A stretch of DNA of 64,000 nt from Mycobacteriales bacterium (GCA_035690485.1 DASSKL010000010.1:856-64855); one strand, 5' to 3'. Counted from the first letter of the stretch, positions 27,890-42,903 are shown. Numbers and translations are program-made. Notes: a model not told the origin generated them from the letters alone.

Positions 27890-27929
27890 CCGGCCATCCT
27901 GCCGCGCCGGCGGTCCTAGCATTGGCCGC

Positions 27930-29543
27930 GTGGCGACCGGGCTGGCAACGGGGGGCCCCGCGCCCGACGCGACCGCGGAGCTGCCTGCCGCCGACCAGCA
28001 CGCGCGGCTGGCCCGCATCCGCGCGCGGCTCGTGGTGCCGCTGCCGCGCGACGTGCTGTGGGGGTGGCTCGGCCCGCTGCTGGTGACCGGGCTGGCCGCC
28101 TACCTGCGCTTCCACCGGCTCGGCGTGCCGCAGGCGAAGGTCTTCGACGAGGTCTACTACAGCCACGACGCGTGGAGCCTGCTGCACCACGGCGTCGAGC
28201 TCAACGCGCACGACAACGGCCCCGGCTTCGTGGTGCACCCGCCGCTCGGCAAGTGGATGATCGCGTTCGGCGAGTGGGTGTTCGGCTACAACTCCTACGG
28301 CTGGCGGTTCTCCGCGGCGCTCGTCGGCACGCTGTCGGTGCTGATCCTCGCCCGTACGGCGCGGCGGATGTTCGGCTCGACGCTGCTCGGCTGCCTCGCC
28401 GGGCTGCTGCTGGCGCTGGAAGCGCTGGAGTTCGTGCAGAGCCGAGTCGCGATGCTCGACATCTTCCTGATGTTCTGGGTCGTCGCGGGGTTCGCCTGCC
28501 TCGTCATCGATCGTGACGACGGCCGGCGGCGCCTGGCCGAGCGTATGGAGGAGTGGCCGGCGTCGGCGCGGGGCCGCGGCCCGTGGCTCGGCGTGCGCTG
28601 GTGGCGGCTCGGTGTCGGGATCTGCGCGGGTGCCGCGTGCGCGACCAAGTGGAGCGGCGTCTGGTTCGTCATCGCGTTCTTCCTGCTGGCGTGGGCGTGG
28701 GACGCGGGCGCCCGCCGGGCGGCCGGCATCCGCCACCCGCGCCGGGCCGCGCTGCTGCTCGACGGCCTGCCCTCGATCGTCCTGCTGCTGCTCGTCCCGG
28801 CGATGGTCTACGTGCTGTCGTGGCTCGGCTGGTTCATGGCCACCGGCGCCACCGCCTGGGATCACGACAAGTTCGTGCACCCGGGGCAGGGCTGGTTCGC
28901 GCACGCCGTCGCGGTCGTGCACGGCTGGGTGAGCTACCACCGCGAGGTCTACAACTTCCACGTCCACCTCGACGCGGGCCACCCCTACAAGTCAGAGCCG
29001 TGGGGCTGGCTGCTGCTGGCCCGGCCGGTGGCGTACTTCTACTCCTCGCCGGACCTGGGCCAGCTCGGCTGCCATGCTCAGCAGTGCTCCCGCGAGGTGC
29101 TCGCGATCGGCACGCCGGCGATCTGGTGGGCGTCGATCCCGGCGCTGCTCTGGACGATCTGGGTGTGGGTCGCCCGGCGCGACTGGCGGGCGACCGCCGT
29201 GCTCTGGGGGTTCGGCGCGGGCTATGTCGTGTGGCTGGCCTTCCCCAGCCGCACGATGTTCCTCTTCTACGCGCTGCCCGCCGTGCCGTTCATGATCCTC
29301 GGGCTGACACTGGCGGCCGGCTCGTTGCTGGGCCGCGCACGAACGACGCTGCTGCGCAGACGGTGGGCCGCGGCGGCGGTCGGCGCCTTCGCCCTGCTGG
29401 TCGTGGCGAACTTCTTCTACCTGTATCCGATCCTCGCCGCGAAGGTCATCCCGCAGAGCGAGTGGCACGACCGCATGTGGTTCCGCCAGTGCACGAGCGC
29501 GAGCAGCGACCACACGGTCGAGGTCGCGCCCTGCTGGATCTAG
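27930..29543 (+). CDS. pmt: Protein O-mannosyltransferase (GT39, dolichyl-phosphate-mannose-protein mannosyltransferase family)
   Basis: GTG start at 27930; multiple TM helices; KVFDEVYYSHDAW...HPPLGKWMIAF motif region typical of PMT-family enzymes. Confidence 0.8.
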   Translation: MATGLATGGPAPDATAELPAADQHARLARIRARLVVPLPRDVLWGWLGPLLVTGLAAYLRFHRLGVPQAKVFDEVYYSHDAWSLLHHGVELNAHDNGPGFVVHPPLGKWMIAFGEWVFGYNSYGWRFSAALVGTLSVLILARTARRMFGSTLLGCLAGLLLALEALEFVQSRVAMLDIFLMFWVVAGFACLVIDRDDGRRRLAERMEEWPASARGRGPWLGVRWWRLGVGICAGAACATKWSGVWFVIAFFLLAWAWDAGARRAAGIRHPRRAALLLDGLPSIVLLLLVPAMVYVLSWLGWFMATGATAWDHDKFVHPGQGWFAHAVAVVHGWVSYHREVYNFHVHLDAGHPYKSEPWGWLLLARPVAYFYSSPDLGQLGCHAQQCSREVLAIGTPAIWWASIPALLWTIWVWVARRDWRATAVLWGFGAGYVVWLAFPSRTMFLFYALPAVPFMILGLTLAAGSLLGRARTTLLRRRWAAAAVGAFALLVVANFFYLYPILAAKVIPQSEWHDRMWFRQCTSASSDHTVEVAPCWI

Positions 29544-29574
29544 CCCGGCCGGCCGCCGGCGGCGAGGTTCGCCA

Positions 29575-29952
29575 CTAGCCGACCACCATCAGCACGTTGC
29601 TCTCGTGGTCGCGAAGCCAGAACATCGGGGGCACCGGACCGCCCATGCGCTGCACCTCGGCGTCGACGTCGACGCCGGCCCCGCGCAGCTGTGCGTGGTA
29701 GCCGTCGACGTCCTCGGTGTGCAGGCTGATGCCGGTCTCCCGGCCGCCGGTCTTGGCCTCCGGGTGCGGGGGCGCGAGCGCGATGGTCGTCTCCTGACCG
29801 GGCAGCCCGACCTCGATCCAGCGGTCGGGGCCGGGGCCGAACGGGATGTCCACCCGCTTCTCGAAACCGAGCTTGCCGACGTAGAAGTCCACCGCGGCGT
29901 CCTGGTCGGCCATCGGGACGATCACCGTCGCGATCTTGCTGGCTTGTGCCAT
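29575..29952 (-). CDS. VOC/glyoxalase family protein
   Basis: Start at MAQASKIATVIVPMADQDAAVDFYVGKLGFEK (internal Met); 125 aa. The upstream part of the listed ORF merely translates the att/tRNA-like repeat. Confidence 0.7.
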   Translation of the reverse strand: MAQASKIATVIVPMADQDAAVDFYVGKLGFEKRVDIPFGPGPDRWIEVGLPGQETTIALAPPHPEAKTGGRETGISLHTEDVDGYHAQLRGAGVDVDAEVQRMGGPVPPMFWLRDHESNVLMVVG

Positions 29953-30090
29953 GGCTCCTCCTGCTCGTCGAAGCTGTCCGCAAGTAGACGACGAAGCGCG
30001 GCAGAAGTCATCGGGCTCGGGGTACGCCGGCAGAAGACTTACCTCTGCGCCACCCTGGACCTGGCACGGCCCGGCTCGGGTCAGAACCGA

Positions 30091-30123
30091 CGTGCGGGTG
30101 GTGGAGCTGAGGGGATTTGAACC
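30091..30123. repeat. att direct repeat (distal copy): 33-bp perfect duplicate of the tRNA-Ala 3' end plus 8 nt of 3' flank
   Basis: cgtgcgggtggtggagctgaggggatttgaacc is identical to 40112-40144. No D-arm or anticodon arm lies upstream, so this is a partial tRNA copy and not a gene. Confidence 0.85.
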
Positions 30124-30142
30124 ACTCGTCGCTCGCTTCCTA

Positions 30143-30168
30143 CCTGCGACTATACGCAAAGTCGCAGG
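30143..30168. other. 9-bp inverted repeat hairpin just inside the left att site
   Basis: cctgcgact-atacgcaa-agtcgcagg; could be an Int/Xis arm-type site or a terminator for the convergent cargo gene. Confidence 0.3.
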
Positions 30169-30307
30169 TCAGCGCGGTGGTCGTGAGCAGCCGGCGGTCG
30201 TTCGACGCCGTTGTACGCCGTGCCGTTATGCCCCGGGGCATAACGGATGATCTTGTTGCGGGGCGGCGAGACGTCCGATCGTCCGTGCGTTGATCAAGAG
30301 AACGGCA

Positions 30308-30883
30308 TCATTCAGAACCCGGCGCGTCGGGGGTCAAACCGAGCCGGTGCCCGGAGCCGCGCAGCCAGTCAATGACCCGCGCCCGAGCAACCCCGTGTCC
30401 GGCCGGCAGCAGCGCGGCGCGGTCCAACAGCGTGCCGAGATCGGCCAGGCGGGCCTCGAGAAGCGCATAGGCAAACGCGAAGTCCTTCTCCCGGTGTGCC
30501 GCGAGCTTCGCGACAATCAGGTCGTGTCGCTCCAGGCACAGCGCCGTCGCCGGCTCGGCCGCTCTGGCGTCGAACCGCACCAGTCGCTCCCGCCAGCCGA
30601 CGGGCAAGATCGCCGTGCTCACGTCGACGCCCTGGGCGTAGTAGGCGAACGTCTGGTGAAACGACGAGAGCTCGCCGATGGCGCCGTCGACGAGGTTGGC
30701 CTTCGCGGAGTCGTCGTCGTCGAAGAAGGCAAGATCCGCTTCGACCGACAGCCACGCGATCTCTGGCAGATCGTCCTCGCCGAAGGTGCCGAGGATCGCC
30801 TGTGAGCCGAGGACGAGGATGTCGGGGTCTCCGGCGACGCGAGCTGCCGCGCGGAGCACGTGCGCCAGCTCCTCGCGTCTCAC
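30308..30883 (-). CDS. Nucleotidyltransferase-fold protein, AbiEii-like putative toxin
   Basis: GTG start at 30883 with a GTGA overlap to the upstream HTH gene; hG[GS] motif (ILVLGSQAILG) followed by an acidic [DE]h[DE]h site (LSVEADLAFF) as in pol-beta-superfamily NTases; 192 aa. Confidence 0.5.
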   Translation of the reverse strand: MRREELAHVLRAAARVAGDPDILVLGSQAILGTFGEDDLPEIAWLSVEADLAFFDDDDSAKANLVDGAIGELSSFHQTFAYYAQGVDVSTAILPVGWRERLVRFDARAAEPATALCLERHDLIVAKLAAHREKDFAFAYALLEARLADLGTLLDRAALLPAGHGVARARVIDWLRGSGHRLGLTPDAPGSE

Positions 30884-31404
30884 CGCACCTTCGGCGAGTT
30901 CGCCGCCCCCAGCACCCGACGCCGTTCCTCCTCGGACAGCACCCCGGCGAAGGGGTTGTTCTGCCGCAGCTCGCGGGATCTGGGCGACGGTGAGGTCAAT
31001 GCGGTCAGCAGCTCGGTCAGCGGGCCTTCCAGCAGCCGCTCCCACTCCCGCATCCAGATTCGCGCGGCCCCACGCGAGGAGGACTCCCGCATCCGGCGCA
31101 GGTTCTCGCGAGCCAGCGCCCGTGCGCTGTCCGGATCTTCCGCTATCCGGCCGGCGATCGCATGCGCCAGCAGCAACGACCGCACCTGATCGCGAGTCAT
31201 CCGGCGTGCACCTGCGGCAACCACGTCGACGTCGCGCTGACGGACCCGACGGTGCTTACCCACCCATGAACACGGCAGGACGCCTTGGTCGCACAGGTCA
31301 ACGACGTGCTGGCGGGACACGCCCAACCGCGCCGCGGCCTCGCCAGTGCTCAACAACTCCTCGCCAGTGTCGGCGGCCAGGCGTTCGGCAACGGTCCCTC
31401 TCAC
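30880..31404 (-). CDS. HTH_17 (MerR/excisionase-type) DNA-binding protein with a C-terminal helical domain; AbiEi-like putative antitoxin/regulator
   Basis: GTG start at 31404; LSTGEAAARLGVSRQHVVDLCDQGVLPCSWVGKHRRVRQRDV helix-turn-helix; 4-nt overlap with the downstream NTase gene; C-terminal domain contains RSLLLAH (Rx5H). Confidence 0.5.
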   Translation of the reverse strand: MRGTVAERLAADTGEELLSTGEAAARLGVSRQHVVDLCDQGVLPCSWVGKHRRVRQRDVDVVAAGARRMTRDQVRSLLLAHAIAGRIAEDPDSARALARENLRRMRESSSRGAARIWMREWERLLEGPLTELLTALTSPSPRSRELRQNNPFAGVLSEEERRRVLGAANSPKVR

Positions 31405-31532
31405 GGCAACTACGCTAATGCCTAACCACCAAAAACACAATGATGGAGCGGCGATATTGGGTTTTGATCGGGTCGCAGGCACCATGCACGGGCGTCTGTC
31501 GAAGCCTGCGGCAGTAGCGGACGCGCACAAGG

Positions 31533-31991
31533 TCAGGACAGATCCAGATCCTGCTTCATCGCGGCCAGCTCATCCGCCGCCGAGAGGCGCAGCAGATCGT
31601 CCTCACGCTTGTGCCGCAGGAGGCTGTCCACGAGGACGCGCCGATGAGTCCCCACCATCCGATAGCCGATCTTGCCGTCGTTCAGCAAACCGATGAGGTA
31701 GGGGCGGGAGACGTTGAGCAGGTCGGCGGCCTGCTGGGTGGTCAGCTCGGCCGTCGATGGGACGACGGCGACCCCGTGACCGGCAGCCATGTGCGCGAGG
31801 ATCCGCACGAACACCCTGAGCGCTGCCGCGGGCACGAGCACCGTCTCCCCGTCGTCCTCCTCCACCCTCAGGTGGATCGACTCGGGCAGCCGCCGGTGTC
31901 GGGTGAGGTAGGACTGCAGCGCCGGTAGGGCCTCGGCAGCACGCGTGGCGTCGTCCTTGCTCGGCAAGATCGTGTCGAGCGCTGCGGTCAT
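31533..31991 (-). CDS. Hypothetical protein with a C-terminal HTH_17 DNA-binding domain (element regulator candidate)
   Basis: 152 aa; C-terminal LTTQQAADLLNVSRPYLIGLLNDGKIGYRMVGTHRRVLVDSL; the N-terminal roughly 80 aa has no recognisable family. Confidence 0.5.
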   Translation of the reverse strand: MTAALDTILPSKDDATRAAEALPALQSYLTRHRRLPESIHLRVEEDDGETVLVPAAALRVFVRILAHMAAGHGVAVVPSTAELTTQQAADLLNVSRPYLIGLLNDGKIGYRMVGTHRRVLVDSLLRHKREDDLLRLSAADELAAMKQDLDLS

Positions 31992-32440
31992 GACTCACCT
32001 CCTCCGCAGTCGCAGTATCCGCAACAAACGAAACAGACGCAATGACGCGTCCGCCGCGATCTTCAGGGGCCATCGGCACCCAAGCAGCCCCCGCGGCCAC
32101 CGTGCTCGAGGCCGCCAACCCGAACGGGAGTGGGTCCGGCGCTTCCCCCCGGGAGGCGAGACACCGGCCCCGTATCGGAGATACCGGGGTGTGTTCCGTC
32201 TGGTTTGTGTCCTGGGTCAGGTTCGTTGGGTCACATGTTCTTGGTGATCTCGTTCGCGTTCGGGATCTTGTTGTCGTGGGTGTTGGTGTCGTGTGAGCCC
32301 GTGATCGCATTCTGGAGATTGTGGTCACTGGCGACTCCTGTGCCGAGATTGGCTCCCTGCACTCCTTCCGCGTCGATTCCGCCAGGCGGAACACCAGCCC
32401 CACTCGGCTCGCTCGAGCTTCGATCAGTCCGCGGCCCGCG

Positions 32441-32488
32441 CGGGGACGCAGGCGGGGACGTCAGCGGGGACGCGGGCGGGGACGCGTG
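32441..32488. repeat. Four tandem 12-bp iteron-like repeats (CGGGGACGNNNG) upstream of the relaxase gene
   Basis: cggggacg recurs at 32441, 32453, 32465 and 32477 (exact 12-nt period); two more copies at 32695 and 32707; sits in an 850-bp non-coding region. Confidence 0.65.
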
Positions 32489-32498
32489 TCGGGTTGCC

Positions 32499-32606
32499 GG
32501 ACAAGGTGTTGGCCAAGGATCTGGACAAGGTCGTCACGCCTGACGAGCAGAATCCGGGGCGCTTTCGGCTTGCGGCCAAGGGTTCGGATAAGGATCTGGA
32601 CAAGGT
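32499..32606. repeat. Direct repeats AAGGATCTGGACAAGGT (x2) / GGACAAGGT (x3) inside the candidate oriT/regulatory region
   Basis: aaggatctggacaaggt at 32515-32531 and 32590-32606; ggacaaggt also at 32499-32507. Confidence 0.6.
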
Positions 32607-32694
32607 ACGGGCGCCAGAGTCCTCGCCGTGCAGACGGACCGGTGGCCTGATTTCAAGATCCCCCCACGCTCGAAACCGGCCCCGGGGGCGCCGG

Positions 32695-32718
32695 CGGGGA
32701 CGTCGGCGGGGACGCCCC
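32695..32718. repeat. Second cluster of two 12-bp CGGGGACGNNNG iterons about 130 bp before the relaxase start
   Basis: cggggacgtcgg cggggacgcccc at 32695-32718. Confidence 0.6.
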
Positions 32719-32845
32719 GAGCTTGCAATGCGCGCATGGATCTCGACCCCGGTGCGCCCACCCGCCGTCCCCGCCCGCCTGCCGCCCCCTCCCCGTCGAC
32801 CCGGGCTACCGCTGCGAGGGGTGGGCGGCGGTGATCTCGGTCGAG

Positions 32846-35701
32846 ATGCTGACCGGCGGACCCGGCGCGGGGGACTACTACCTGCGCCGGCAGGCGGACT
32901 GCGCGGCTGACTACTACGTCGGTCGGGGCGAGTCGGAGGGCGTGTGGGTAGGTGCCGGCGCCGAAGCGCTCGGCCTGACGGGTCCGCTGGGTCCAGGCGG
33001 CGAGCATGTGCTGCGAGCGATGCTCGCCGGCCGCGCTCCGGACGGCCAGGTGTTGGTGGCGGCGGTGCTTCGGGCGGTTCCGGCGTCCCGGCTGCCCGCC
33101 GGCCCACTCGTGGAGGCGGTCAGGGCGGTCGCGATCGGCCAGCAACTGACCCCGTCCGAAATCCTGCCGCGGACGCCGGATGCGCGGTACCGGGTGCTGG
33201 AACGGCGGATGGACGGGCCGCGTGGCGCGACGGCGACCGTGGGCGCGGAGGACGCCGAGCGGCTGTGTTCGGCGGCCGGCCTCGACCCGGTCGCGGTGTT
33301 CCGGGCGGCGGACGGCACGGACCGGTTCAGCCCGGCGCTCGCGGCGGCCGACGGCCGAGTGGACATTCGCCGCGCTGGGATCGACGTGACCATGTCCGCG
33401 CCCAAGTCGGTTTCCGTCCTCTACGGGCTCGGCTCGCCGGCGGTCGCCGGGCAGGCGCGGGCCGCCCACGACGCCGCGGTCGCCGAGGCACTGCGCTACC
33501 TGTCGCGGGAGGCGGGGCACGGGCTGCGCGGGCATCAAGGTGATGGGCGGCGGGCGGCGCGCATCGGCACCGACGGGCTGATCGCGGCGGGGTTCACCCA
33601 CCGGACGAGCCGCGCGGACGACCCGCAGTTGCACACCCACCTGGTCATCCCGAACGTCGTACGGGGTGAGGACGGCCAGTGGAGCGCGGTGGACTCCCGG
33701 GCGGTCTACCGGCACGCCACCACGGCCTCCTACCTGTACCAAGCAACGTTGCGGGCCGAGCTGACCCGCCGGCTCGGCGTCACGTGGACCGCCCCCAAGC
33801 GGGGCATCGCCGAGATCGTGGGGGTGCCGGCTGGGCTGCGCCGGCTCTTCTCGACCCGCAGCGTCCAGATCAGCACCGAACTGGCCCGAACCGGCCGGGA
33901 CGGCCCCGCTGCGGCGCAGGTCGCCTGCCTGGCCACCCGCCCCGCCAAGTCCCACACGCCGGAGGTCGCGCTACGGGAGCGCTGGCAGCTGCGCGCCGCC
34001 GAGGCTGGTCATCCGGGCGAGCAGCTGATCGACCAGACGGTCGGCCGGCAGATCGAGTTGCCGGCGTTGCCGACGTTCGCCGAGATGAGCGACAGGCTGG
34101 TCGCCCCGACCGGGCTGACCTCGATGCAGACCAGCGTGGACCGCCGCGATCTGCTGCAGGCCGTCTGCGAAGAACTGCCGCCCGGCGCACCGGTCTCCCT
34201 CGAGCTGGTCGACGCCTACGCCGACGCCACCCTCCGCTCCACGGAGTTGGTGCGGCTGGCAGGCGCCGCCGCGGTGGTTGAGGATGGGCCGCGCTGGTCC
34301 ACAGCTGAACTGCTGGCCACCGAAAAGCACGCCTTCACCGTCGCCGCCACGCTCCGTGCCGCCGCCCCCGCCCGCCCGATCCGCTCTATCGCTTTGCGCG
34401 GCCTCAATGGCGAACAGGCGGCGCTGGTCCGCGGATTGCTCGAGCATACAGGCGGACTGACGATCGTCGTCGGCCCGGCGGGCGCCGGTAAGACCGCCGC
34501 GCTGAAGACCGCCGTCGAGGCATGGTCCGCGGCCGGCGTACCCGTGCACGGCGCGACGGTCGCCGCGCTCACCGCCCGCGAACTATCCCGGGCCACCGGC
34601 ATGCCCACAACTACGTTGACCCGCCTGCTTGCTGACGCCGACCGGCCTACCGCCGACGGTCACCCTCCGGCAGGCCTGCCGGCCGGGTCGGTGCTGGTCG
34701 TCGACGAGGCCGGCATGGTCGACACCCGCACCCTCGTCCGGCTTCTCGACCACGCCGCGGCCAGCCGAGCGAAACTCGTGCTGGTCGGGGATCCGGCCCA
34801 GCTGCCGGAGATCGGCGCCGGCGGGCTGTTCACCGCGCTCACCCGCCATCCCGACACCATCCGGCTGCAGGGCAACCAGCGGCAGCACCGACTGTGGGAA
34901 CGGGTCGCGCTCGCCCAGCTGCGCACCGGTGACATTGCCGGGGCCCTGGATGCCTACGAGGCGCACGGGCGTATCCACACGGCCCCGACCGCGGTCGACG
35001 CGCAGGTCGAGATCGTCAGCGACTACCTCGCCCTCCGGGACCAGACAGTCCATCCCGACCGGGTGCTCATGCTCACGTCCACCCGCGCCGACACGTGCGA
35101 GCTCAACGAGCTGACCCGCGCCCGGCTGCGCGCCCACGGCCGGCTCGCCGGCCCCGCACTCACCGTCATGACCGCTGACGGGGACGTACGTGACTTCCAG
35201 GCCGGCGACGAGGTGGTGGTCATCCGCAACGACCACAGCCGGGGGCTGCTCAATGGCACCCGGGCCACCGTCACCGCCGTCGACCCCCACGCCCAGTGGC
35301 TCGCCTTGACCACCCGCGACGGCGCCGGGCACACCGTCGGCACCGACTGGCTACAGGAGGATCGACTCGCCCACGGTTACGCGCTCACCGTCCATAAGGC
35401 CCAAGGCTCCACCGTCGACCACGCCCTGCTCTACGGCACCGGCGCCCTCAGCCAGGAAGCCGGCTACGTCGCCCTGTCCCGTGGCCGCGAGAGCAACCAC
35501 CTCTACGCCGCGAACCCCGACCTCGACGAGCTGTACGCCGTCGAGCGGCAAGTACCGGACTGGCTCGCCGACCGGCTCGAACAGTCAGCCCGGCAAACGC
35601 TCGCCCTCGAGCAGTACCCGGACGGCGGATCTCATCCGGACGGGCTGTTCGACTGGCTGCGAGATGACGGGCGCGGCCACGACCTCGGGATCGGCCGATG
35701 A
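32846..35701 (+). CDS. traA: MobF-family conjugative relaxase fused to a RecD-like helicase (TraA/TrwC-like)
   Basis: N-terminus MLTGGPGAGDYYLRRQ...DYYVGRGESEGVWVGAGAEALGLTG; ...TMSAPKSVSVLYG...; HTHLVIPNV three-His motif; C-terminal VVGPAGAGKTAAL Walker A, VVDEAGMV and YALTVHKAQGSTVDH helicase motifs. An alternative GTG start lies at 32831. Confidence 0.85.
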   Translation: MLTGGPGAGDYYLRRQADCAADYYVGRGESEGVWVGAGAEALGLTGPLGPGGEHVLRAMLAGRAPDGQVLVAAVLRAVPASRLPAGPLVEAVRAVAIGQQLTPSEILPRTPDARYRVLERRMDGPRGATATVGAEDAERLCSAAGLDPVAVFRAADGTDRFSPALAAADGRVDIRRAGIDVTMSAPKSVSVLYGLGSPAVAGQARAAHDAAVAEALRYLSREAGHGLRGHQGDGRRAARIGTDGLIAAGFTHRTSRADDPQLHTHLVIPNVVRGEDGQWSAVDSRAVYRHATTASYLYQATLRAELTRRLGVTWTAPKRGIAEIVGVPAGLRRLFSTRSVQISTELARTGRDGPAAAQVACLATRPAKSHTPEVALRERWQLRAAEAGHPGEQLIDQTVGRQIELPALPTFAEMSDRLVAPTGLTSMQTSVDRRDLLQAVCEELPPGAPVSLELVDAYADATLRSTELVRLAGAAAVVEDGPRWSTAELLATEKHAFTVAATLRAAAPARPIRSIALRGLNGEQAALVRGLLEHTGGLTIVVGPAGAGKTAALKTAVEAWSAAGVPVHGATVAALTARELSRATGMPTTTLTRLLADADRPTADGHPPAGLPAGSVLVVDEAGMVDTRTLVRLLDHAAASRAKLVLVGDPAQLPEIGAGGLFTALTRHPDTIRLQGNQRQHRLWERVALAQLRTGDIAGALDAYEAHGRIHTAPTAVDAQVEIVSDYLALRDQTVHPDRVLMLTSTRADTCELNELTRARLRAHGRLAGPALTVMTADGDVRDFQAGDEVVVIRNDHSRGLLNGTRATVTAVDPHAQWLALTTRDGAGHTVGTDWLQEDRLAHGYALTVHKAQGSTVDHALLYGTGALSQEAGYVALSRGRESNHLYAANPDLDELYAVERQVPDWLADRLEQSARQTLALEQYPDGGSHPDGLFDWLRDDGRGHDLGIGR

Positions 35702-35919
35702 GGCTGCTGACCATCCCCGAAGCGGCCACGGAGCTGCACGTCCCCGAAGGCTGGCTGCGCAAGAAGGTCACCGCTCGCGAAGTGCCCTTCACCCGCCTGG
35801 GCAAGCACGTCCGCTTCACCGACGACCAACTACGCGCCATCGTCATAGCCGGCGAGGTACTACCGATTGTCGTACCCGCCAGGCAAGGCCTCAGCCGGCG
35901 CGCCAGGAAGCTCGCATAA
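35698..35919 (+). CDS. xis: Excisionase/Xis-like HTH_17 DNA-binding protein
   Basis: 73 aa; LTIPEAATELHVPEGWLRKKVTAREVPFTRLGKHVRFTDDQL; ATGA overlap with the relaxase stop. Confidence 0.7.
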   Translation: MRLLTIPEAATELHVPEGWLRKKVTAREVPFTRLGKHVRFTDDQLRAIVIAGEVLPIVVPARQGLSRRARKLA

Positions 35920-35974
35920 CATGCTCGGCCAGTTTGCAGGACCCTGTCGGTTCCTTGAGGGTGCACTCGGAATT

Positions 35975-36008
35975 GGATCCGGACACCACTGTTGCGGTGT
36001 CCGGATCC
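35975..36008. terminator. Bidirectional hairpin terminator between convergent xis and the secreted-protein gene
   Basis: Perfect 13-bp inverted repeat ggatccggacacc-actgttgc-ggtgtccggatcc, 56 nt after the xis stop and 46 nt after the stop of the minus-strand gene. Confidence 0.45.
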
Positions 36009-36053
36009 AATGGCCGGATTGCTACGCCCTACCAGTTGGGTGAGTGTGCACTC

Positions 36054-36902
36054 TCAGATGCTGGCGCACGCATCGCCGCGGTCGTAGTACGGCGACGGCG
36101 TTTCCCACCAGGTCGCGTCCCACACGGTCGAGTAGTTGACTGGGCCGTAGACGACAACGACTTGTTGCCCGTACGTCACGTTCGTGTCAGACGAGTTCGC
36201 GCCTCCGGTTCCTGGGTGACAGGACGTTGCGCTGATTCCTTCGTTGGACACGGACACATGGCCCTGGTCGACCCAAGATCCCAAGTACGTGTAGGTGCCC
36301 TTGATGTAGTTGGATCCGCCGACCAAAGTCGTACCCACGCATATGGTGCCGCTGGACGTAGTGGCAGCACAGGCTGAGCCGACAGGAACAGACGCCGGGG
36401 AAACCTGTGTCGGCGACTGCGTCTCGGACGGGGATGGGCTAGCACTTGCTTGATCCGCAGACGGGCTAGCACTCTCTTGCGGCCCAGACGCGGAAGAGTT
36501 GGAATTCGCTTGCGCCCCCGAGGGCACTGGCACCGACTTCGGATCGCAACTGATCACACCGGCGACGGCCAAGGTCGTTATGTCCGCAGGCATGCCCTTG
36601 ATCCCGCTGGCGCCGCTAACGGGGATGTACTCGAGGTTCTCAAGGTGGCAACCGGAGGGAGCAAGCTCGTCCCATTTCGCGCTTCGCATGCTTGCTTGCT
36701 GGTCGGCTGCCCAGGCTTCCCACGCGCTTCTCGGCGCTGCTGCCGACGGCGCGGCCGGAAGTGGGTTTGCGTCCACGCTGGAAACAGGTTGCCCCGTTGG
36801 CGTCGGAGGCGAACCATCTGCAGCCGCGGGTGCAATGTCTGCGCCTCCCACGAAACCCAACGCGACGGCGAACGTGACTACGAACGACTTGCGACGAGCC
36901 AC
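36054..36902 (-). CDS. Secreted Cys-containing protein of unknown function (two domains joined by a Ser/Pro/Gln-rich linker)
   Basis: GTG start with AAGGGGG RBS; signal peptide VARRKSFVVTFAVALGFVGGADIAPAAA; low-complexity linker SGPQESASPSADQASASPSPSETQSP; C-terminal domain with about 5 Cys; lower-GC codon usage. Confidence 0.5.
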   Translation of the reverse strand: MARRKSFVVTFAVALGFVGGADIAPAAADGSPPTPTGQPVSSVDANPLPAAPSAAAPRSAWEAWAADQQASMRSAKWDELAPSGCHLENLEYIPVSGASGIKGMPADITTLAVAGVISCDPKSVPVPSGAQANSNSSASGPQESASPSADQASASPSPSETQSPTQVSPASVPVGSACAATTSSGTICVGTTLVGGSNYIKGTYTYLGSWVDQGHVSVSNEGISATSCHPGTGGANSSDTNVTYGQQVVVVYGPVNYSTVWDATWWETPSPYYDRGDACASI

Positions 36903-36943
36903 TGCAACCACCCCCTTCTTGTCAACAATTGGACTTAGGTGTC

Positions 36944-38062
36944 TCAACTCGATGGACGAGTCTCTGGCGCGTTCAGCGTGATCGGGCCTGGCAGCGCGGC
37001 AACGGCGATGCTGTCGTCGAGTCCCCATTCCAGTCGGGCACTTCCCTGGCCGGCGGGGACCTCGATTTGCATCGCGAATGTGGCGCTGTCCCCGGCCTTA
37101 ATGCCGTTTGTCTCGTCGCAGTTGAGGCGGTACTGGCCGACGGTGGCGTCAGTTGGCTGGTCGTAGCCGGCACCCATGTATTGGGTGTAGATCGGACAGC
37201 GGTTGAAGATCACGTCCCGATCGGACGGATTGTGGAGGGTAACCGTGTAAGTGACCGTGTCTCCGCTGGTAGCCGCGCGGGGAGCGCTGATCGTGATCAC
37301 CAAGCCGTTCAACTCCGAGGTGGCCGCCGCGGGCGTGGTGAACGCGCTGTACGTGAAGGCCGTATGCCGAAAACCGTTGCACGGAGTGTCGGTCGCAGCG
37401 GGGAAGGCGATTGTCACCTCGCCGCCCCCCGGGGCCGGCACCCGGAAGGCTGTCGCGGTGGCATTGGATTCGCCAGAAGGCATTGGGGGCAACGTGTCGC
37501 ACTCGTCTGAGTAGCTGAACACGATCGCCGCACGCTCCCCAGGCTTTAGGTTTGCCGGCGGGGCGGTGTGCACATGAGGGTCAGCCGTCACGGTCGTCCC
37601 GCTGACCCGACCACCGCCGGTCAGTTCCACGCTTATGTCAGAGGCATAGCCGGACAGCGTGCAGGGCTGGCTGCCACGATTGGTGAACCAGAGCAGAAGG
37701 CGATGATCGTGAACACCAAGGCCCGCGTCGACTGGTTCGGCGCGACCTTGCATTTCCGCGGCGCCGCAGGCTGGATACTCGGCCGAGTTGTCGACTTCTA
37801 CGGGCTGGTTGACCCATGGCGCCGGCTGCGCGCTTCCCATACGGATCGGGACCGGCTCAGTAGAGTGCCCGGCGAGGCTGTAGGTAGAGAGGACGGCGAC
37901 GACGGCGGTCGTCGTGGCCGTCGCCGTTAGAACCGCGACAGCGCGGCGAGAGCGGCGTCGGCGGTCGATACGCCGGTGCAGTTCTTCCAGAAATTCCCCC
38001 TGTACCGCAACGACGGGAACGTCTTCGAAGGCACGAACTAGCTCACGTTCTGCATCGTTCAT
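36944..38062 (-). CDS. Anti-sigma factor with extracytoplasmic DUF4232-like domain
   Basis: ATGA overlap with the sigma gene; N-terminal cytoplasmic segment MNDAERELVRAFEDVPVV..., a single TM (AVAVLTATATTTAVVAVLS), and an ectodomain with HRLLLWFTNRGSQPCTLSGY typical of DUF4232. Confidence 0.55.
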   Translation of the reverse strand: MNDAERELVRAFEDVPVVAVQGEFLEELHRRIDRRRRSRRAVAVLTATATTTAVVAVLSTYSLAGHSTEPVPIRMGSAQPAPWVNQPVEVDNSAEYPACGAAEMQGRAEPVDAGLGVHDHRLLLWFTNRGSQPCTLSGYASDISVELTGGGRVSGTTVTADPHVHTAPPANLKPGERAAIVFSYSDECDTLPPMPSGESNATATAFRVPAPGGGEVTIAFPAATDTPCNGFRHTAFTYSAFTTPAAATSELNGLVITISAPRAATSGDTVTYTVTLHNPSDRDVIFNRCPIYTQYMGAGYDQPTDATVGQYRLNCDETNGIKAGDSATFAMQIEVPAGQGSARLEWGLDDSIAVAALPGPITLNAPETRPSS

Positions 38063-38556
38063 TTCGGTTGCTCCGCTTCCCGCAATGGCGAGCCGAGCCG
38101 TTCTCTTAGCGTGCGCAAGGCCTTGGCCGACTGGCTCTTCACGGTGCCGACGCTGCATCCCAAGGCCGCTGCGGCCTGTTGTTCGGAGTAGTCAGCCACA
38201 TAACGCAGCGCCAACACCGCTCGCTGACGCGGAGGCAAAGCGGCGAGCGCGTCCCACACCTCGAAACTCCGGCCGACCGGCTCATAGAATTGCTCCGGAA
38301 CTACGGCGACCAGGCGTTCCAAGCGGCGACGTCGCCACCAACTGATCCTCTGGTTCACCATGACCTGACGGACGTACCTGGCCGGGTCCCCGCTTGCGAG
38401 CACACGAGACCACCGGGTCCCGACCTGCAACAGCGCTTCCTGCACCAAGTCGTCGGCATGCGCGGAGTTGGCGGTCAGCGCATATGCGAAGCGAGAGAGT
38501 TCCGGCATACGGACACGCACGAACGCGTCGAACGACGCTCGTTCGTCGGCGTCCAC
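38059..38556 (-). CDS. ECF (sigma-70 family group IV) RNA polymerase sigma factor
   Basis: 165 aa; region 2 (ADDLVQEALLQVGTRWSRV...YVRQVMVNQRISWWRR) and region 4 HTH (QRAVLALRYVADYSEQQAAAALGCSVGTVKSQSAKALRTLR). Confidence 0.8.
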   Translation of the reverse strand: MDADERASFDAFVRVRMPELSRFAYALTANSAHADDLVQEALLQVGTRWSRVLASGDPARYVRQVMVNQRISWWRRRRLERLVAVVPEQFYEPVGRSFEVWDALAALPPRQRAVLALRYVADYSEQQAAAALGCSVGTVKSQSAKALRTLRERLGSPLREAEQPK

Positions 38557-38760
38557 GCTTCACCACCTTCCGCCAGTAGCACGCACGAGGAGGTGGAAAG
38601 GTTGCCCGGGCCGACCAGCAGATTGGGCGACAGGGTTGCCGGACCAGGCAAACGTTCCTGAAAGCGACCTCCGTAGTCAGGTGTACGGCCCCCGACTCCG
38701 GGCCGAATCGCCATTGTCAGTCAGACCGGGCATGCTGCGCCCGAACGAGGAATGGCACCC

Positions 38761-40020
38761 CTATGCCGGCTTCTCCTCAAGCACGAGCACCGCCGCCTCG
38801 ACGCTGTCCCCTCCGGTTGCGGTGACCACCTTGCGACCGCCGAGTGCCCGGTCGATGGCGAGGTCGGCTATCTCGTGGGTCTGGAAGAGCAGCCCACCGT
38901 AGACGTCGACGGTGATCTGGATGCTCTTGTGGCCGAGCCGCTTCTGGATCACCGGCAGGGGGACGCCAGCCGAGATCAGCCAGGCGGCGTGCGTGTGCCG
39001 CAGGTCGTGGAACCGCGGCGTCTTCGCCAGTCCTTTGGCCTGCGCGGCCTTGATCGCGCGCTGCCATCCGCCGTACCAGTTGCCGTGCACCCGCCGGCCG
39101 CCGCCGCGGGCGCTGAACACCAGATCGTCCGGGCCTCGACCGGCCACGACGCGGCGCAACGCCTCGACGACGCGCGGGGCCAGGGTGATGCGCCGCCGGG
39201 ACTCGCGCGTCTTCGGCTTGCCGATGTAGGCGACGCCGTGCTGCCCGAGCGCGAACTCGCCCCGGCCGTTGCTCTTCCAAGCCCGGCGGATCGTCAGCAT
39301 CGCCGGTGAGCCGTCGATGTTGAGGTCCTTGACCTTGAGCGCGGTGAGCTCGCCCCAGCGCAGCCCCGTGCCCACGGCGACAGTCAGGAAGTCGCGGTCA
39401 ACCTCGGGCATGCACGAGCGCAGGAGCGCGAACTCCTTCTCGGTGAGGAAGACCTTGTCCTCGTCGTCCTCAGTGTCGTCGTCGGTCGGCGGCAGTTTCA
39501 CCCCTTCGCAGGGGTTGCGGCCGATCAGGCCCTTCTCCACCGCGCTCTTGAGCACGGCCGCCAGCAGGCCGTGGTAGTTGGCGATCGTCTTCGGGCTGGC
39601 GCCGGCCTTGCGCCGGGCGACGATCCAGTCGCGGTCGTCGTCCGACGTCAGGTTCTCGATCGTCGGCTGGCACCGCTTGATCTCGGTGAGCCAGCCGTCG
39701 AGCGACGTCAGCTGCTGGACGTACTTCGTCTGCGTGTCCGGCCCGGCGCTGGTGAGCCGGCGGACGTACGCCGTGCCGAACTCGAGTAACGGGCGCTCCT
39801 CCGCCGGCTCCTCCCACGCCTCACCGAAACCCATGCCCTTGACCCAGCCGTCCGGCCACCGCTGACCGGCGGCGTCGACGAGCGCCGCGAACTTCAGCGC
39901 CGCCCGGCGGTCGGCGAACGTCTCGGACTGCCATGGTGCGCCGCGGCTGCCACCGAGCAGCCACTGCACCTTGTAGGTGCGCTCGCCGGACTTGTGCTTG
40001 CGCGTGACGACGCTCGCCAT
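38761..40020 (-). CDS. int: Tyrosine-type site-specific recombinase / phage integrase
   Basis: ATG 40020 with GGAGG 6 nt upstream; N-terminal MASVVTRKHKSGERTYKVQW AP2-like domain; catalytic region with R...HDLRHTHAAWLISAGVPLPVIQKRLGHKSIQITVDVYGGLL (R, HxxR, Y). Lies directly 3' of tRNA-Ala. Confidence 0.9.
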   Translation of the reverse strand: MASVVTRKHKSGERTYKVQWLLGGSRGAPWQSETFADRRAALKFAALVDAAGQRWPDGWVKGMGFGEAWEEPAEERPLLEFGTAYVRRLTSAGPDTQTKYVQQLTSLDGWLTEIKRCQPTIENLTSDDDRDWIVARRKAGASPKTIANYHGLLAAVLKSAVEKGLIGRNPCEGVKLPPTDDDTEDDEDKVFLTEKEFALLRSCMPEVDRDFLTVAVGTGLRWGELTALKVKDLNIDGSPAMLTIRRAWKSNGRGEFALGQHGVAYIGKPKTRESRRRITLAPRVVEALRRVVAGRGPDDLVFSARGGGRRVHGNWYGGWQRAIKAAQAKGLAKTPRFHDLRHTHAAWLISAGVPLPVIQKRLGHKSIQITVDVYGGLLFQTHEIADLAIDRALGGRKVVTATGGDSVEAAVLVLEEKPA

Positions 40021-40111
40021 GACCGCCTCCAAGATCAACCGTTATGCCTCGGTTATGCCTCGGGAGCGACCGTAGAGCGGCCCTGCGACAGTTTTCGCAG
40101 GTCAGAGCCTT

Positions 40112-40144
40112 CGTGCGGGTGGTGGAGCTGAGGGGATTTGAACC
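40112..40144. repeat. att direct repeat (tRNA-proximal copy) overlapping the 3' 25 nt of tRNA-Ala
   Basis: Identical 33-mer to 30091-30123. Confidence 0.85.
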
Positions 40145-40196
40145 CCTGACCCCCTCGATGCGAACGAGGTGCGCTACCGGACTGCGCCACAGCCCC
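40120..40196 (-). tRNA. tRNA-Ala (anticodon CGC)
   Basis: 77-nt cloverleaf GGGGCUGUGGCGCAGUCCGGUAGCGCACCUCGUUCGCAUCGAGGGGGUCAGGGGUUCAAAUCCCCUCAGCUCCACCA; G3:U70 Ala identity pair; anticodon loop UUCGCAU; encoded CCA. Confidence 0.9.
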
Positions 40197-40252
40197 GCGG
40201 TGCTGTCCAAGTTACACGAACGCGGCGCCACCCCTGCGTGGACGCAGCGGCG

Positions 40253-41146
40253 TCAGTCTCCGACTGCCCGACGTTCGACGATCTGGTCGAGCTCGTCGTC
40301 CTCGTCGTCCCAGCCGTCGACCTCGACGGCAGGCTCGTCGTCGAGGAACGCGTCGCTCCACGCGCCAGGTCGGGTGAGGTCGATGACCGGCATCGCCGGC
40401 GGCTTGAGCGTGTAGGTCGGCGGGGGCACCGGCACCGGCTGCCAGCCGTCGGTGCCGGTTGCGCCCTCCTCGATTACGCCCTCTGCCACCATCGGCTCGA
40501 CCGTAGACACCTCGGTGGCGGCGGCCGGCGCGTAGGCCGGGACCTCCGGCTCCTCGGCCGGCACCGGCGGCGCGGGGCGTGCCGGCGCGGGCCGCGCCGG
40601 AACCGGACGAGCGGGGGCGCGGCGCATGGGCCGGCGGGCGGCGGAGCGCGCCTCGATCCGCAGGTGCGCGACGTAGGCGACCAGCAGCAGGTCCACCAGG
40701 AGCTGCACCGGCAACGGCAGCACGCCGACCGCGACGAGCACCAGCGACAGGAAGACCAGCGACACCAGGACGAGCAGCACCCGGCGCCGGCGAGCCATCA
40801 GGCCCCGGCGGGCGTCGGCCGGCCGGGCCGGCCGGGATGCCGCGACCGGCGGTCGTGCCCCGGCGGGACGGGAGGCCGGCCGGGGCTGCGGCGCAGGCTC
40901 CGGCCGGGTCTGGCGGGCCCGGCGAGCCGGGTCGGACGCCCCCGAGACGTGCCAGGACATCGCGTCGGGCAGGCGACGGGGCATGACGACGTACCTCTTC
41001 GACGTGGTGGACCGGGACGCCATCGGGATGGCGCGCCGGGACAGGACCCGCATCGCAGCGGAGAAGCGGTCGGCGGACCGGGCCTCGAGAGAGGCGTCGT
41101 GTCGCCGGAGCCACATGGGGACGAGAACCGCCGCCCACATGGCCAC
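40253..41146 (-). CDS. Proline-rich conserved membrane protein (Rv0996-like)
   Basis: 297 aa; single hydrophobic segment VLLVLVSLVFLSLVLVAVGVL flanked by Pro/Arg-rich regions and an acidic C-terminus; conserved position upstream of rimJ. Confidence 0.45.
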   Translation of the reverse strand: MAMWAAVLVPMWLRRHDASLEARSADRFSAAMRVLSRRAIPMASRSTTSKRYVVMPRRLPDAMSWHVSGASDPARRARQTRPEPAPQPRPASRPAGARPPVAASRPARPADARRGLMARRRRVLLVLVSLVFLSLVLVAVGVLPLPVQLLVDLLLVAYVAHLRIEARSAARRPMRRAPARPVPARPAPARPAPPVPAEEPEVPAYAPAAATEVSTVEPMVAEGVIEEGATGTDGWQPVPVPPPTYTLKPPAMPVIDLTRPGAWSDAFLDDEPAVEVDGWDDEDDELDQIVERRAVGD

Positions 41147-41324
41147 GATCGCGGCGTAGATCAGCCCGCTCAGGACAGCCTCCAGACCCTTGTACCTACC
41201 GCCGCTGAACGCTAGTCAGGCCCTCCGCGTGCGGCACGCATCTGGCCCGGTGTGTCGCCGGGTTCCTCACCGGCCGAGGGGACAACGGCGTCGTATCTCG
41301 GCTGGTTCCTCATCCAGCGACCGA

Positions 41325-41933
41325 TCAGCGCGCCGCGGCGGCGAGCGCACGGGAAAGGAGACCGGCGGGTGCATCTTCCACCGTGACCGCGTAGCTGATG
41401 TGGTCGCGGTAGGCACCGTCGATGTGCAGGTAGCGCCGGCGCAGGCCTTCCTCGCGGAACCCGAGCTTCTCGACGACGCGGCGGCTGGCGGCGTTCTCGG
41501 GCCGGATGTTGGCCTCGACGCGGTGCAGACCGGCCCGCTCGAAGCAGTGGTCGACGGCGAGGGCGAGCGCGATCGGCATGATCCCGCGGCCCGCCACGGC
41601 CGAGTCGATCCAGTAGCCGGCATGACCGGAGTTCAGCGAGCCGCGCACGATCGTGGCGATGGTGACCTGGCCCACGAGCCGGCCGTCGAAGAGCAACGCG
41701 AAGGGCAGCGCCGATCCCTCGCGGCCCTTGCGGTTGAGGTCTCGCCGCATCGCCAGGTAGACCGTGGCGCTGGGGTCGGATCGCCCACTCTGGCCCGGCG
41801 GGGTCGCCTCCCAGGGCCGCAGCCAGTCCTCATTGCGGCGGCGCACGTCGACCCACTCACCGGCGTCGCGCAGCCGCATGGGCCGGAGGGTGACCGGGCC
41901 GTGGCCGAGGCGCGCCGGCCATCCCGCCGCCAC
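41325..41933 (-). CDS. GNAT family N-acetyltransferase (RimJ-like ribosomal-protein acetyltransferase)
   Basis: 202 aa; GNAT core with RGIMPIAL... and HRVEANIRPENAASRRVVEKLGFREEG. Confidence 0.8.
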   Translation of the reverse strand: MAAGWPARLGHGPVTLRPMRLRDAGEWVDVRRRNEDWLRPWEATPPGQSGRSDPSATVYLAMRRDLNRKGREGSALPFALLFDGRLVGQVTIATIVRGSLNSGHAGYWIDSAVAGRGIMPIALALAVDHCFERAGLHRVEANIRPENAASRRVVEKLGFREEGLRRRYLHIDGAYRDHISYAVTVEDAPAGLLSRALAAAAR

Positions 41934-41936
41934 GGG

Positions 41937-42434
41937 TCAGTGGTCCTCGCCGTGCAGCTGCGCGACGGCGTGCCCGATGACCGGCGCGAGCACCGCCATG
42001 CCGTCGCGGACGCCGCCGGTCGAGCCGGGGAGGTTGACGACGAGCGTGCCGGCGGCGACACCGGCGACACCGCGGGACAGGATCGTCGTCGGGATCTGCT
42101 CGCGGTTGTACTGCCGGACCGCCTCCGCCAGCCCGGGCGCCTCCTTGTCGAGCACGGTGCGGGTCGCCTCCGGCGTGACGTCGCGCGGTGCGAACCCGGT
42201 GCCTCCGGTCGTGACGCAGACGTCGACCTCGTCGGCGATTGCGCTGCGCAGCGCGGCCACGATCTCGGGCACCTCGTCGGGCACGACGACCACGTCGCCG
42301 ACCTCGAATCCCTGGTCGCGCAGCAGGCCGGCGAGCAGCGGTCCCGAGGAGTCGTGGCGCGCGCCACCGTGCGAGCGGTCGGAGACCGTGATCACCCGGG
42401 CGGTGGCGCCGGCAGGAAGTCCTTCGCTACCCAT
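41937..42434 (-). CDS. mogA: Molybdenum cofactor biosynthesis protein MogA/MoaB
   Basis: 165 aa; VCVTTGGTGFAPRDVTPEAT motif. Confidence 0.85.
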   Translation of the reverse strand: MGSEGLPAGATARVITVSDRSHGGARHDSSGPLLAGLLRDQGFEVGDVVVVPDEVPEIVAALRSAIADEVDVCVTTGGTGFAPRDVTPEATRTVLDKEAPGLAEAVRQYNREQIPTTILSRGVAGVAAGTLVVNLPGSTGGVRDGMAVLAPVIGHAVAQLHGEDH

Positions 42435-42903
42435 CCCGCCTCCAGTCGCCGCTCTTGCCGCCGGTCTTCTCCACGACGCAGATGTCGGTGACGACCGCGG
42501 CCGGGTCCACCGCCTTCACCATGTCGACGAGGGCGAGCGCGGCGACGGTCACCGAGGTGAGCGCCTCCATCTCGACGCCGGTGCGGTCGGCGGTGCGCAC
42601 GGTAGCGCTGATGTCAACCCCGTCGTCAGCGACGTCGAGGTCGACAACGACCCCGTGCACGGCGATCGGGTGGCAGAGCGGCACCAGGTCGGGCGTGCGC
42701 TTGGCGGCCATGATCCCGGCGATGCGGGCGACGGCGAGCGCGTCGCCTTTGGGCACGCCCTCGCCGCGGAGCAGCTCGACGACCCGTGGCGACACCAGCA
42801 CCCGGCCCCGCGCGGTCGCCGTGCGGACGGTCACGTCCTTGGTGGCGACGTCGACCATGCGGGCCGCGCCGGTCGCGTCGACGTGGGTCAGCCGCTTGCT
42901 CAT
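42427..42903 (-). CDS. moaC: Cyclic pyranopterin monophosphate synthase MoaC
   Basis: 158 aa; [15 protein letters not shown]...[28 protein letters not shown]. Confidence 0.9.
   Translation of the reverse strand: [158 protein letters not shown]

Follow-up and report, generated by a model that had tools for sequence, protein, structure and literature searches.

A stretch of 64,000 nucleotides of DNA from a Mycobacteriales bacterium (GCA_035690485.1 DASSKL010000010.1:856-64855), referred to below as the window, was found to contain an element of 10,021 bp inserted at the 3′ end of a tRNA-Ala(CGC) gene. The element carried nine genes, for which the analysis of GC content at third codon positions (GC3), Pfam, NCBIfam, PHROGs, and the public gene calls were concordant, and it is probably a genuine integrative mobilizable element (IME). 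The host DNA was that of an uncultured high-GC soil actinobacterium, and the element was chromosomal. Contigs and loci that were compared with the window are numbered with the prefix L. The features of the insertion and of the mobility region were as follows.

30091..30123, unstranded: attL core, a 33-bp partial copy of the tRNA-Ala 3′ end (direct repeat; single copy in the empty site of contig L094)
30225..30244, unstranded: candidate arm-type sites, the inverted pair GTTATGCC / GGCATAAC, 101 bp inside attL
31992..32845, unstranded: non-coding candidate origin of transfer (oriT) or regulatory region of 854 bp, directly upstream of the relaxase gene
32846..35701, plus strand: MobF relaxase-helicase of 951 amino acids (aa), with a TrwC domain and a superfamily 1B (SF1B) helicase (Pfam, NCBIfam, PDB, AlphaFold2)
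35698..35919, plus strand: excisionase-type protein of 73 aa (HTH_17, TIGR01764; phrog_1840 excisionase over the full length, E=5e-10)
38761..40020, minus strand: tyrosine integrase (Int) of 419 aa (Phage_integrase, E=4e-24; phrog_1, E=3e-63)
40041..40062, plus strand: two tandem copies of GTTATGCCTCG as candidate arm-type sites, lying between the core and the start of int
40112..40144, unstranded: attR core, 8 nt of flank and the 3′ 25 nt of the tRNA (direct repeat)
40120..40196, minus strand: tRNA-Ala(CGC), the integration target (ARAGORN, Rfam; identical in the empty-site contig L094)

The boundaries of the element were marked by an exact direct repeat of 33 bp (CGTGCGGGTGGTGGAGCTGAGGGGATTTGAACC), which occurred twice in the whole 64-kb window, at 30091-30123 and 40112-40144. 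No third copy was found in the 64 kb even with three mismatches allowed, and 100 shuffled sequences gave 0 matches to the 33-mer. The bases flanking the two copies differed on either side, so that the perfect repeat was exactly 33 bp long; an imperfect similarity extended over 48 bp at 91.7% (30079-30126 vs. 40100-40147). The start-to-start distance of the two copies was 10,021 bp, which is the size of the element. An intact tRNA-Ala(CGC) gene was found at 40120-40196 on the minus strand by both ARAGORN and Rfam, and Rfam returned only tRNA from the window. The right copy of the 33-mer consisted of the 3′ 25 nt of this gene, including the CCA, and 8 nt of flank; the left copy was without an adjoining tRNA body. 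The genes to the left (MetG, RsmI, Pmt, and glyoxalase) and to the right (SepX/GlpR, RimJ-like, MoaB, MoaC, Glp, and GalU) were all housekeeping genes. A first-pass annotation of the same DNA, made from the sequence alone, had described the two perfect repeats, the intact tRNA gene within the second, an att duplication in the first, and housekeeping genes on both sides; all of this was recovered here, and the 33-mer was single in the empty site.

The integrase gene was terminal in the element, with 91 bp between it and the attR core, and its product contained all of the catalytic motifs (the Arg of LRWGE, HDLRH, LGH, and VYGG). The 73-aa protein belonged to the helix-turn-helix (HTH) family HTH_17, and its gene overlapped the relaxase stop codon through ATGA and was translationally coupled to it. 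No match to this protein was found in a PDB sequence search.

The relaxase matched TrwC (E=2e-73), AAA_30 (E=3e-51), and the NCBIfam MobF model NF041492 (232 bits vs. a cutoff of 100), and TraA_Ti and TraI were also matched in the same NCBIfam search. It contained DYY at residues 10 and 22, FTHRTSR..HTHLVIPN at residues 250-270, the Walker A motif GPAGAGKT at residue 543, and the Walker B motif VVDEAG at residue 618, and these positions did not vary among 31 aligned members of the family. The relaxase domain was matched in sequence to the solved structures 1omh (E=1e-23) and 5n8o (E=2e-21) of TrwC and TraI, and the AlphaFold2 model had a pLDDT of 82. A clade-specific insertion of about 97 aa was present between motif I and the remaining relaxase fold. 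An open reading frame (ORF) of 992 aa starting at 32723 was dropped for the 951-aa start at 32846, which was favoured by the gene callers and by the N-termini of the family.

The 854 bp upstream of the relaxase gene contained GCGGGGACG iterons with a period of 12 bp, in four copies at 32440-32485 and about three copies at 32683-32716, followed by an inverted copy at 32766-32774. Repeats of the GGACAAGG type were found at 32499-32531 and 32573-32606, and the palindrome ATGCGCGCAT, unique in the window, at 32728-32737. Phased 12-bp iterons were likewise present upstream of the relaxase in L097 and L180, and L180 shared GGACAAGG and had a GTGGTGACG array. No Rfam family was found in 31992-32845. 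By its position, this region is the candidate location of oriT. The sequence ATGCGCGCA was rejected as a conserved nic/oriT motif, being common to L180 only.

No type IV secretion system (T4SS), type IV coupling protein (T4CP), VirB4 or other mating pair formation (MPF) protein, or FtsK-type translocase was found among the products of the nine genes in Pfam, NCBIfam, and PHROGs. The element proteins gave zero matches to FtsK_SpoIIIE and none to the replication families RepSA, RepAM/DUF3631, and Prim-Pol in Pfam and NCBIfam. Tblastn with the T4CP, the adjacent ATP-binding protein (presumed to be VirB4-like), and the SCO6880-family protein of plasmid pTH1 returned nothing from the window or from the loci of the 47-56% clade. 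A VirD4-type T4CP gene was found to adjoin relaxases that belong to the same lineage but are more distant (L105; Pfam confirmed the gene). Because the element was without a channel or coupling protein, and VirD4-type T4CPs were found beside the distant relaxases of the lineage and on pTH1, it is reasonable to infer that the element would be mobilizable in trans and not self-transmissible. The first-pass annotation had named the tyrosine integrase beside the tRNA, the MobF relaxase-helicase (HTHLVIPNV, Walker A), the small Xis-like HTH_17 gene over the relaxase stop, and the iteron-rich stretch of about 850 bp, and had seen no T4SS, coupling protein, or FtsK-type gene. The profile scores, catalytic motifs, ATGA overlap, iterons, and pTH1 searches agreed with it on each of these points.

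The representative genomes of GTDB, in which the best Pmt identity was 57-62% (the best matches being metagenome-assembled genomes (MAGs) of uncultured Mycobacteriales and Frankiaceae), were usable for synteny but too distant for an empty site to be compared base by base. Such a site was reached through an exact-protein look-up of the glyoxalase gene located directly left of attL. Contig L094 (JGI 3300025909) encoded an identical glyoxalase protein, and GlpR, tRNA-Ala, glyoxalase, and Pmt were contiguous in it, with a single 33-mer and no element. It was 99.89% identical to window 22730-30123 and 99.79% identical to 40100-44400. Against the predicted attB (the window minus 30124-40144) it aligned over 2,180 bp at 99.95% with zero gaps. 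The insertion was therefore a precise, site-specific, and discrete unit of 10,021 bp. The same site was occupied in at least 20 metagenome contigs, with the element at 99.1-100% identity, and the element is polymorphic for presence within one natural population. The first-pass annotation had proposed a search for an empty tRNA-Ala site with contiguous flanks, and had given as grounds for abandoning its reading relatives with this gene content but no repeats, a dispersed 33-mer, or an inactive or ancestral integrase together with the lack of a compositional discontinuity at the boundaries. Such a site was found in L094, with flanks of 99.8-99.9% identity, and none of these grounds applied: the 33-mer was not dispersed, the catalytic residues of the integrase were complete, and the boundaries matched the presence/absence polymorphism to the base.

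The order MetG-RsmI-Pmt-[0.07-10 kb]-tRNA-Ala(CGC)-GlpR-RimJ-MoaB-MoaC-Glp was kept at 80 syntenic loci of other species, and the mobility genes of the element were found at 0 of these 80. The distance from Pmt to the tRNA was 66-626 bp in L013, L019, and L007. In other lineages, Pmt was separated from tRNA-Ala(CGC) by 66 bp to about 10 kb (L001-L080; e.g., L002, L006, L011, L014, and L070), and the site may be a general hotspot for other kinds of insertion.

Differences between the occupied copies (L085, L083, and L086) were clustered at window 33000-35700, the remaining element and the flanks being near-identical. In L085, 100 of the 102 mismatches to the window over 11 kb were located inside the relaxase gene, where 49 codon changes were synonymous and 41 non-synonymous. 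Of the 24 mismatches in L083, 23 fell in 34117-34543, and they were a subset of the L085 changes. The cluster of substitutions in the relaxase gene looks like recombination tracts or allele exchange, or the co-assembly of two related elements. At 1-170 of contig L187 (Logan SRR31070076_39780), read in the orientation of the window, the left end of the element (99.85% identical to window 30093-33341) abutted 131 bp of unrelated sequence. This contig contained the variant core GACGTGC[CTGC]GGGTGGTG[TG]GAGC..., and its outer flank ended in the C-terminus of a high-GC3 ORF. L187 may represent a second context of insertion, or else the contig is chimeric.

About 1,478 homologs of the relaxase were found at E<=1e-10 among 8,000 candidates scored, the nearest being 56% identical, and nearly all of them came from soil metagenomes and actinobacterial MAGs. 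The plasmid relaxases of PLSDB were at most 35% identical. In the window and in six homolog loci, an HTH_17 gene (68-91 aa) was present directly after the relaxase gene, followed by a tyrosine integrase gene in four of the six homolog loci, and no transfer machinery was found in the six inspected. Four relatives were delimited by tRNA-derived direct repeats at tRNA genes.

L098: tRNA-Ala(GGC), 48-bp direct repeat, about 10.7 kb
L179: tRNA-Arg(CCT), 41-bp direct repeat, about 12.1 kb
L181: tRNA-Leu(GAG), 24-bp direct repeat, about 14.7 kb
L196: tRNA-Ala(CGC), the same site in another host, 23-bp direct repeat, about 11.2 kb

For L182 and L197, no att repeats were found within the contig DNA examined. 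The identities of Xis and Int in relatives were paired (68%/82%, 65%/84%, and 57%/64%), and Xis was undetectable where Int was about 30% identical, though the relaxases there were the closest (52-55%). Because the identity of the HTH_17 protein tracks that of Int and not that of the relaxase, the 73-aa protein is probably Xis, the recombination directionality factor (RDF) of Int. Integrase homologs reached 80-86% identity and were paired with relaxases of only 43-48% identity. Since Xis follows Int, and similar integrases are accompanied by divergent relaxases, the int-xis-att and relaxase-oriT modules appear to recombine independently.

The motif GTTATGCC was found in four copies in the 64 kb vs. 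0.27 expected, solely at the att ends. In L196 (Int 82% identical), the tandem motif was present at the same position, and an inverted pair was present about 100-120 bp inside the far att site; the tandem motif was also retained in L197 (Int 84-85% identical). L182 (Int 64% identical) contained a different tandem 11-mer (GGTGTTCCCCA/G x2) in the identical place, between a conserved leader and GGAGCGAC; a second copy of its arm motif was not found at its far end. Because the position was conserved while the sequence co-varied in L182, L196, and L197, there is good evidence for a candidate arm-site function of the GTTATGCC sites, which would flank the core in attP like arm-type sites. The integrases of 82-85% identity were located at tRNA-Ala(CGC) of another host in L196 (9824-10000) and at tRNA-Leu(CAG), adjoining an FhaA-PP2C-RodA-PknB cluster, in L197 (9816-10000). 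These two loci shared the GTTATGCC arm repeats, and their two tRNAs were alike in the T-arm and the 3′ end, which suggests target switching between tRNAs with the arm sites retained.

The cargo of the relatives was variable and included an RHS toxin, toxin-antitoxin pairs, genes of the SIR2 type, a P450 accompanied by an MMPL transporter, and a lone Cas1-like gene. Conflict-type cargo was found in L179 (3152-9103), as an RHS/YD-repeat protein of 1,983 aa, and in L181 (14402-15888), as a SIR2_2 and DUF6650 pair beside int. The Cas1-like gene (PF01867, 268 aa) of L196 was located inside the element at 16615-17421, and no further cas genes were called nearby. A sister-clade relaxase in L103 (9224-12706), 43% identical and without the insertion, read as an ORF of 1,160 aa, followed by an integrase and a tRNA-Arg(ACG). 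Its C-terminal part showed a weak tblastn similarity to T4CP (28% over 195 aa) that Pfam did not confirm.

Canonical IMEs, for example NBU1 and NBU2 of Bacteroides, contain an integrase, their own relaxase, and an oriT, and are without a T4CP or MPF. The element resembled this class (Guedon et al., 2017; PMC5704250) in its size of about 10 kb, terminal tyrosine integrase, insertion at a tRNA 3′ end, duplicated core, own relaxase beside a non-coding oriT region (here a candidate), passenger cargo, and lack of a coupling protein or channel. It differed in its relaxase, which is a MobF TrwC-helicase fusion, in the translational coupling of xis to the relaxase gene, and in its uncultured high-GC soil actinomycete host. 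Actinomycete integrative and conjugative elements (AICEs), such as pSAM2 and SLP1 (Ghinet et al., 2011; PMC3218068), share with it an actinomycete host, a size of roughly 10-25 kb, an int/xis module, integration into a tRNA 3′ end, and an HTH_17-type excisionase. However, AICEs are defined by an FtsK/SpoIIIE-type Tra and a Rep (RepSA, RepAM, or Prim-Pol) and transfer double-stranded DNA with no relaxase, whereas the present element had neither of these and a MobF relaxase instead.

The T4SS-type integrative and conjugative elements (ICEs) as well as the TrwC-MobF plasmids of Actinobacteria (Ghinet et al., 2011; Thermobifida halotolerans pTH1) have a relaxase of the same superfamily and domain order. 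On pTH1, the MobF relaxases were accompanied by a T4CP, the adjacent ATP-binding protein, an SCO6880-family protein, and NlpC/P60, an apparent T4SS-type transfer cluster; in contrast, the element was without T4CP and T4SS genes, and the closest plasmid relaxases were at most 35% identical. R388 TrwC and F/R1 TraI are alike in the N-terminal HUH relaxase with paired catalytic tyrosines and H..HxH, followed by an SF1B helicase. Unlike them, the present relaxase contained the insertion (about 97 aa), and the element encoded neither a cognate T4CP (TrwB) nor an accessory gene of the TrwA type and was integrated and not a plasmid. The element has the terminal recombinase gene, the repeat-bounded insertion with an unoccupied attB, the own relaxase, and the lack of transfer genes of a canonical IME, with a candidate oriT region, and it lacks the features that define AICEs and T4SS-type ICEs.

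On the IME reading, Int and the 73-aa directionality factor would recombine the two 33-bp cores, and the GTTATGCC arm-type sites flanking attP would aid the assembly of the complex. Excision would yield a circle and an intact attB and tRNA. The MobF relaxase would then nick one strand at a predicted oriT within the iteron-rich region of 854 bp and stay covalently bound to the 5′ end, the SF1B helicase domain unwinding the DNA. Since the element is without a coupling protein or channel, a conjugative plasmid or ICE in the same cell would have to accept the relaxase-DNA complex through its VirD4-type T4CP and T4SS. Once in the recipient, the strand would be recircularised, made double-stranded, and integrated at tRNA-Ala, with a low-GC cassette of three genes carried as presumptive passenger cargo.

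Several observations weigh against this reading. The relaxase-coupled HTH_17 protein could be a relaxosome accessory factor instead of, or besides, an RDF, and a second HTH_17 gene was found adjacent to int in L197. An empty site by itself is unable to separate recent gain from precise loss. No k-mer was conserved across seven relaxase-upstream regions that would mark a nic/oriT motif. The attP junction had no exact match in the viral contigs of IMG/VR, and the integrase-bearing contigs all showed the same chromosomal context or broke at the 33-bp core, and such breaks leave a search for the junction in assemblies uninformative. No helper element is known for the uncultured host. A Logan contig of 10,048 bp was considered as a circle and rejected, being the element broken at the repeat.

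The explanation that survives best beside the IME reading, though it is unlikely, is that the TrwC-helicase protein is mainly an initiator of rolling-circle replication (RCR) and that the element is an integrating plasmid-like replicon, for which transfer is secondary or absent. Nicking after excision at an iteron-flanked origin would drive replication and keep the circle in dividing cells. Iterons upstream of the gene of an initiator are classically associated with replication origins, the mechanism of HUH relaxases is related to that of the Rep proteins of RCR, relaxases of ICEs can also serve as replication initiators (Ghinet et al., 2011; PMC3218068), and no other Rep gene was present in the element. 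However, the protein scored as a genuine conjugative relaxase of the MobF type (NCBIfam MobF over the cutoff, TraA_Ti, and TraI), and relaxases of the same lineage adjoin VirD4-type T4CPs. The two roles are not exclusive, and replication of this kind is compatible with the IME model and more an addition to it than a true alternative.

It is less probable again that the element is self-transmissible without a dedicated T4SS, the relaxase-DNA complex or the double-stranded circle being moved by FtsK/TraB-type machinery of the host or an AICE, or by ESX-type machinery, with the phased iterons in the role of a clt locus. The clade of about 1,478 homologs kept a minimal relaxase-xis-int core, a T4CP was present in none of the clade contexts inspected, and the single-protein TraB transfer of actinomycetes recognises short repeats (PMC12857230). 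Against this, the element encodes no translocase, TraB systems move double-stranded DNA and do not need a relaxase, related relaxases are paired with VirD4-type T4CPs, and experimental precedent is lacking. Equally improbable is the reading that the compact relaxase-xis-int elements of the clade in general move by such a route, one without a description so far for actinomycete elements with a relaxase, and do not simply hitchhike on T4SS helpers; the 12-bp iterons and the 97-aa insertion, possibly a built-in DNA-binding module, would then replace the accessory proteins and the recognition by a coupling protein.

Slightly more doubtful still, and poorly supported, is a decaying remnant of a larger ICE or AICE, now stripped of transfer genes, immobile, and inherited with the chromosome. 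The same site was occupied in all of the occupied contigs, no circular form was seen in IMG/VR, and one copy contained an insertion sequence (IS) (L082). Against it stand the perfect 33-bp repeats, the intact int, xis, and relaxase genes with every catalytic motif, and the clean presence/absence polymorphism in backgrounds of 99.8-99.9% identity. The same compact architecture recurred in many lineages at a range of tRNAs, which speaks for selection of the design and not for random decay, and integrases of 82-85% identity were located in another host at tRNA-Ala, and also at tRNA-Leu(CAG). Contig L187 also suggests a second flank for the same element.

A prophage remnant or phage satellite moved by transduction is poorly supported and highly improbable: although the integrase and Xis match the phage families phrog_1 and phrog_1840 and tRNA integration is also typical of phages, no capsid, terminase, portal, primase, or packaging genes were found, the lone "terminase small subunit" match was weak (E=3e-6) and fell in the N-terminal HTH region of a 174-aa protein of the element, a full-length conjugative relaxase was present, and the attP junction was without an exact match in IMG/VR.

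Islands in tRNA genes that combine an integrase with a relaxase form a well-known class, and as an IME the element is mechanistically ordinary and overturns nothing. The 2017 review of IMEs reported that no canonical IME with MobF or MobH was then known, and that a single actinobacterial IME was known, ATE-1, with MobV (PMC5704250). Ghinet et al. searched for TrwC in actinobacterial genomes only within T4SS-type ICEs (PMC3218068), and the Streptomyces IMEs reported later are 86-100 kb long (PMC9513070). Automated surveys (ICEfinder) call any integrase-plus-relaxase island an IME and have reported thousands (PMC10201445, PMC10484663). Because of this labelling, elements of the present type have very probably been catalogued without description; no description of a large soil-actinomycete family of IMEs with MobF relaxases was found in the literature. 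The element is a clean and fully delimited example, for which the occupied and empty alleles in one natural population make excision and transfer directly testable, and it gives access to a large family of soil-actinomycete IMEs with MobF relaxases. The apparent shuffling of modules and switching of tRNA targets with kept arm sites bear on the matching of such hitchers to helpers and hosts. The integrase/att pair is a possible tool for engineering actinomycetes of the uncultured type.

The remaining genes of the element were as follows.

30308..30883, minus strand: 191-aa protein, weakly similar to DUF6036 nucleotidyltransferases (Pfam E=4.6e-4, under the curated cutoff; GC3 0.85)
30880..31404, minus strand: 174-aa HTH_17 protein (HTH_17, E=4.6e-11; weak AbiEi_4, E=1.6e-3; gene calls in L085/L183)
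31533..31991, minus strand: 152-aa HTH_17 protein (HTH_17, E=1.4e-9; TIGR01764, E=1e-10)
36054..36902, minus strand: cargo, secreted protein of 282 aa, Cys-containing and without a family match (GC3 0.70)
36944..38062, minus strand: cargo, 372-aa DUF4232 protein (DUF4232, E=1.2e-10; 4-bp overlap with the sigma factor gene)
38059..38556, minus strand: cargo, SigE-family extracytoplasmic function (ECF) sigma factor of 165 aa (TIGR02983, E=1.4e-48, over the cutoff)

The gene of the 191-aa protein overlapped the upstream gene of the 174-aa HTH_17 protein by 4 bp. The two may, on weak grounds, be a toxin-antitoxin pair, and the 174-aa protein is possibly an antitoxin or a regulator. The gene of the 152-aa HTH_17 protein diverged from the relaxase gene, with the iteron region between them, and its product is probably a regulator or a relaxosome accessory factor. 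The position of the DUF4232 gene suggests that its product is an anti-sigma-like partner of the ECF sigma factor. PADLOC matched the three HTH_17 proteins weakly ("mad1") and the helicase domain of the relaxase generically (RecD/helicase type), with nothing for the other proteins; these matches were not taken as the sign of a defence system.

The cargo cassette (36054-38556) was located between the convergent xis and int genes, which were adjacent in L182, L098, L179, and L181, and it was probably acquired secondarily. The GC content of 35920-38760 was 63.9%, vs. 73% in the flanks and 72.1% in the window. The lower GC of the interior, which the first-pass annotation had placed at 36.0-38.1 kb, was thus real, and its extent was slightly wider. 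The GC3 of the cargo genes was 0.70-0.75, vs. 0.81-0.93 in the core genes and 0.91-0.96 in the flanking genes. In one population variant (L082, 13579-14691; L090, 2294-3406), an IS630-family (DDE_3) insertion of about 1.2 kb was found in the secreted-protein cargo gene, at about window 36439-36469. The insertion site was located at a 27-bp tandem repeat (window 36436-36490).

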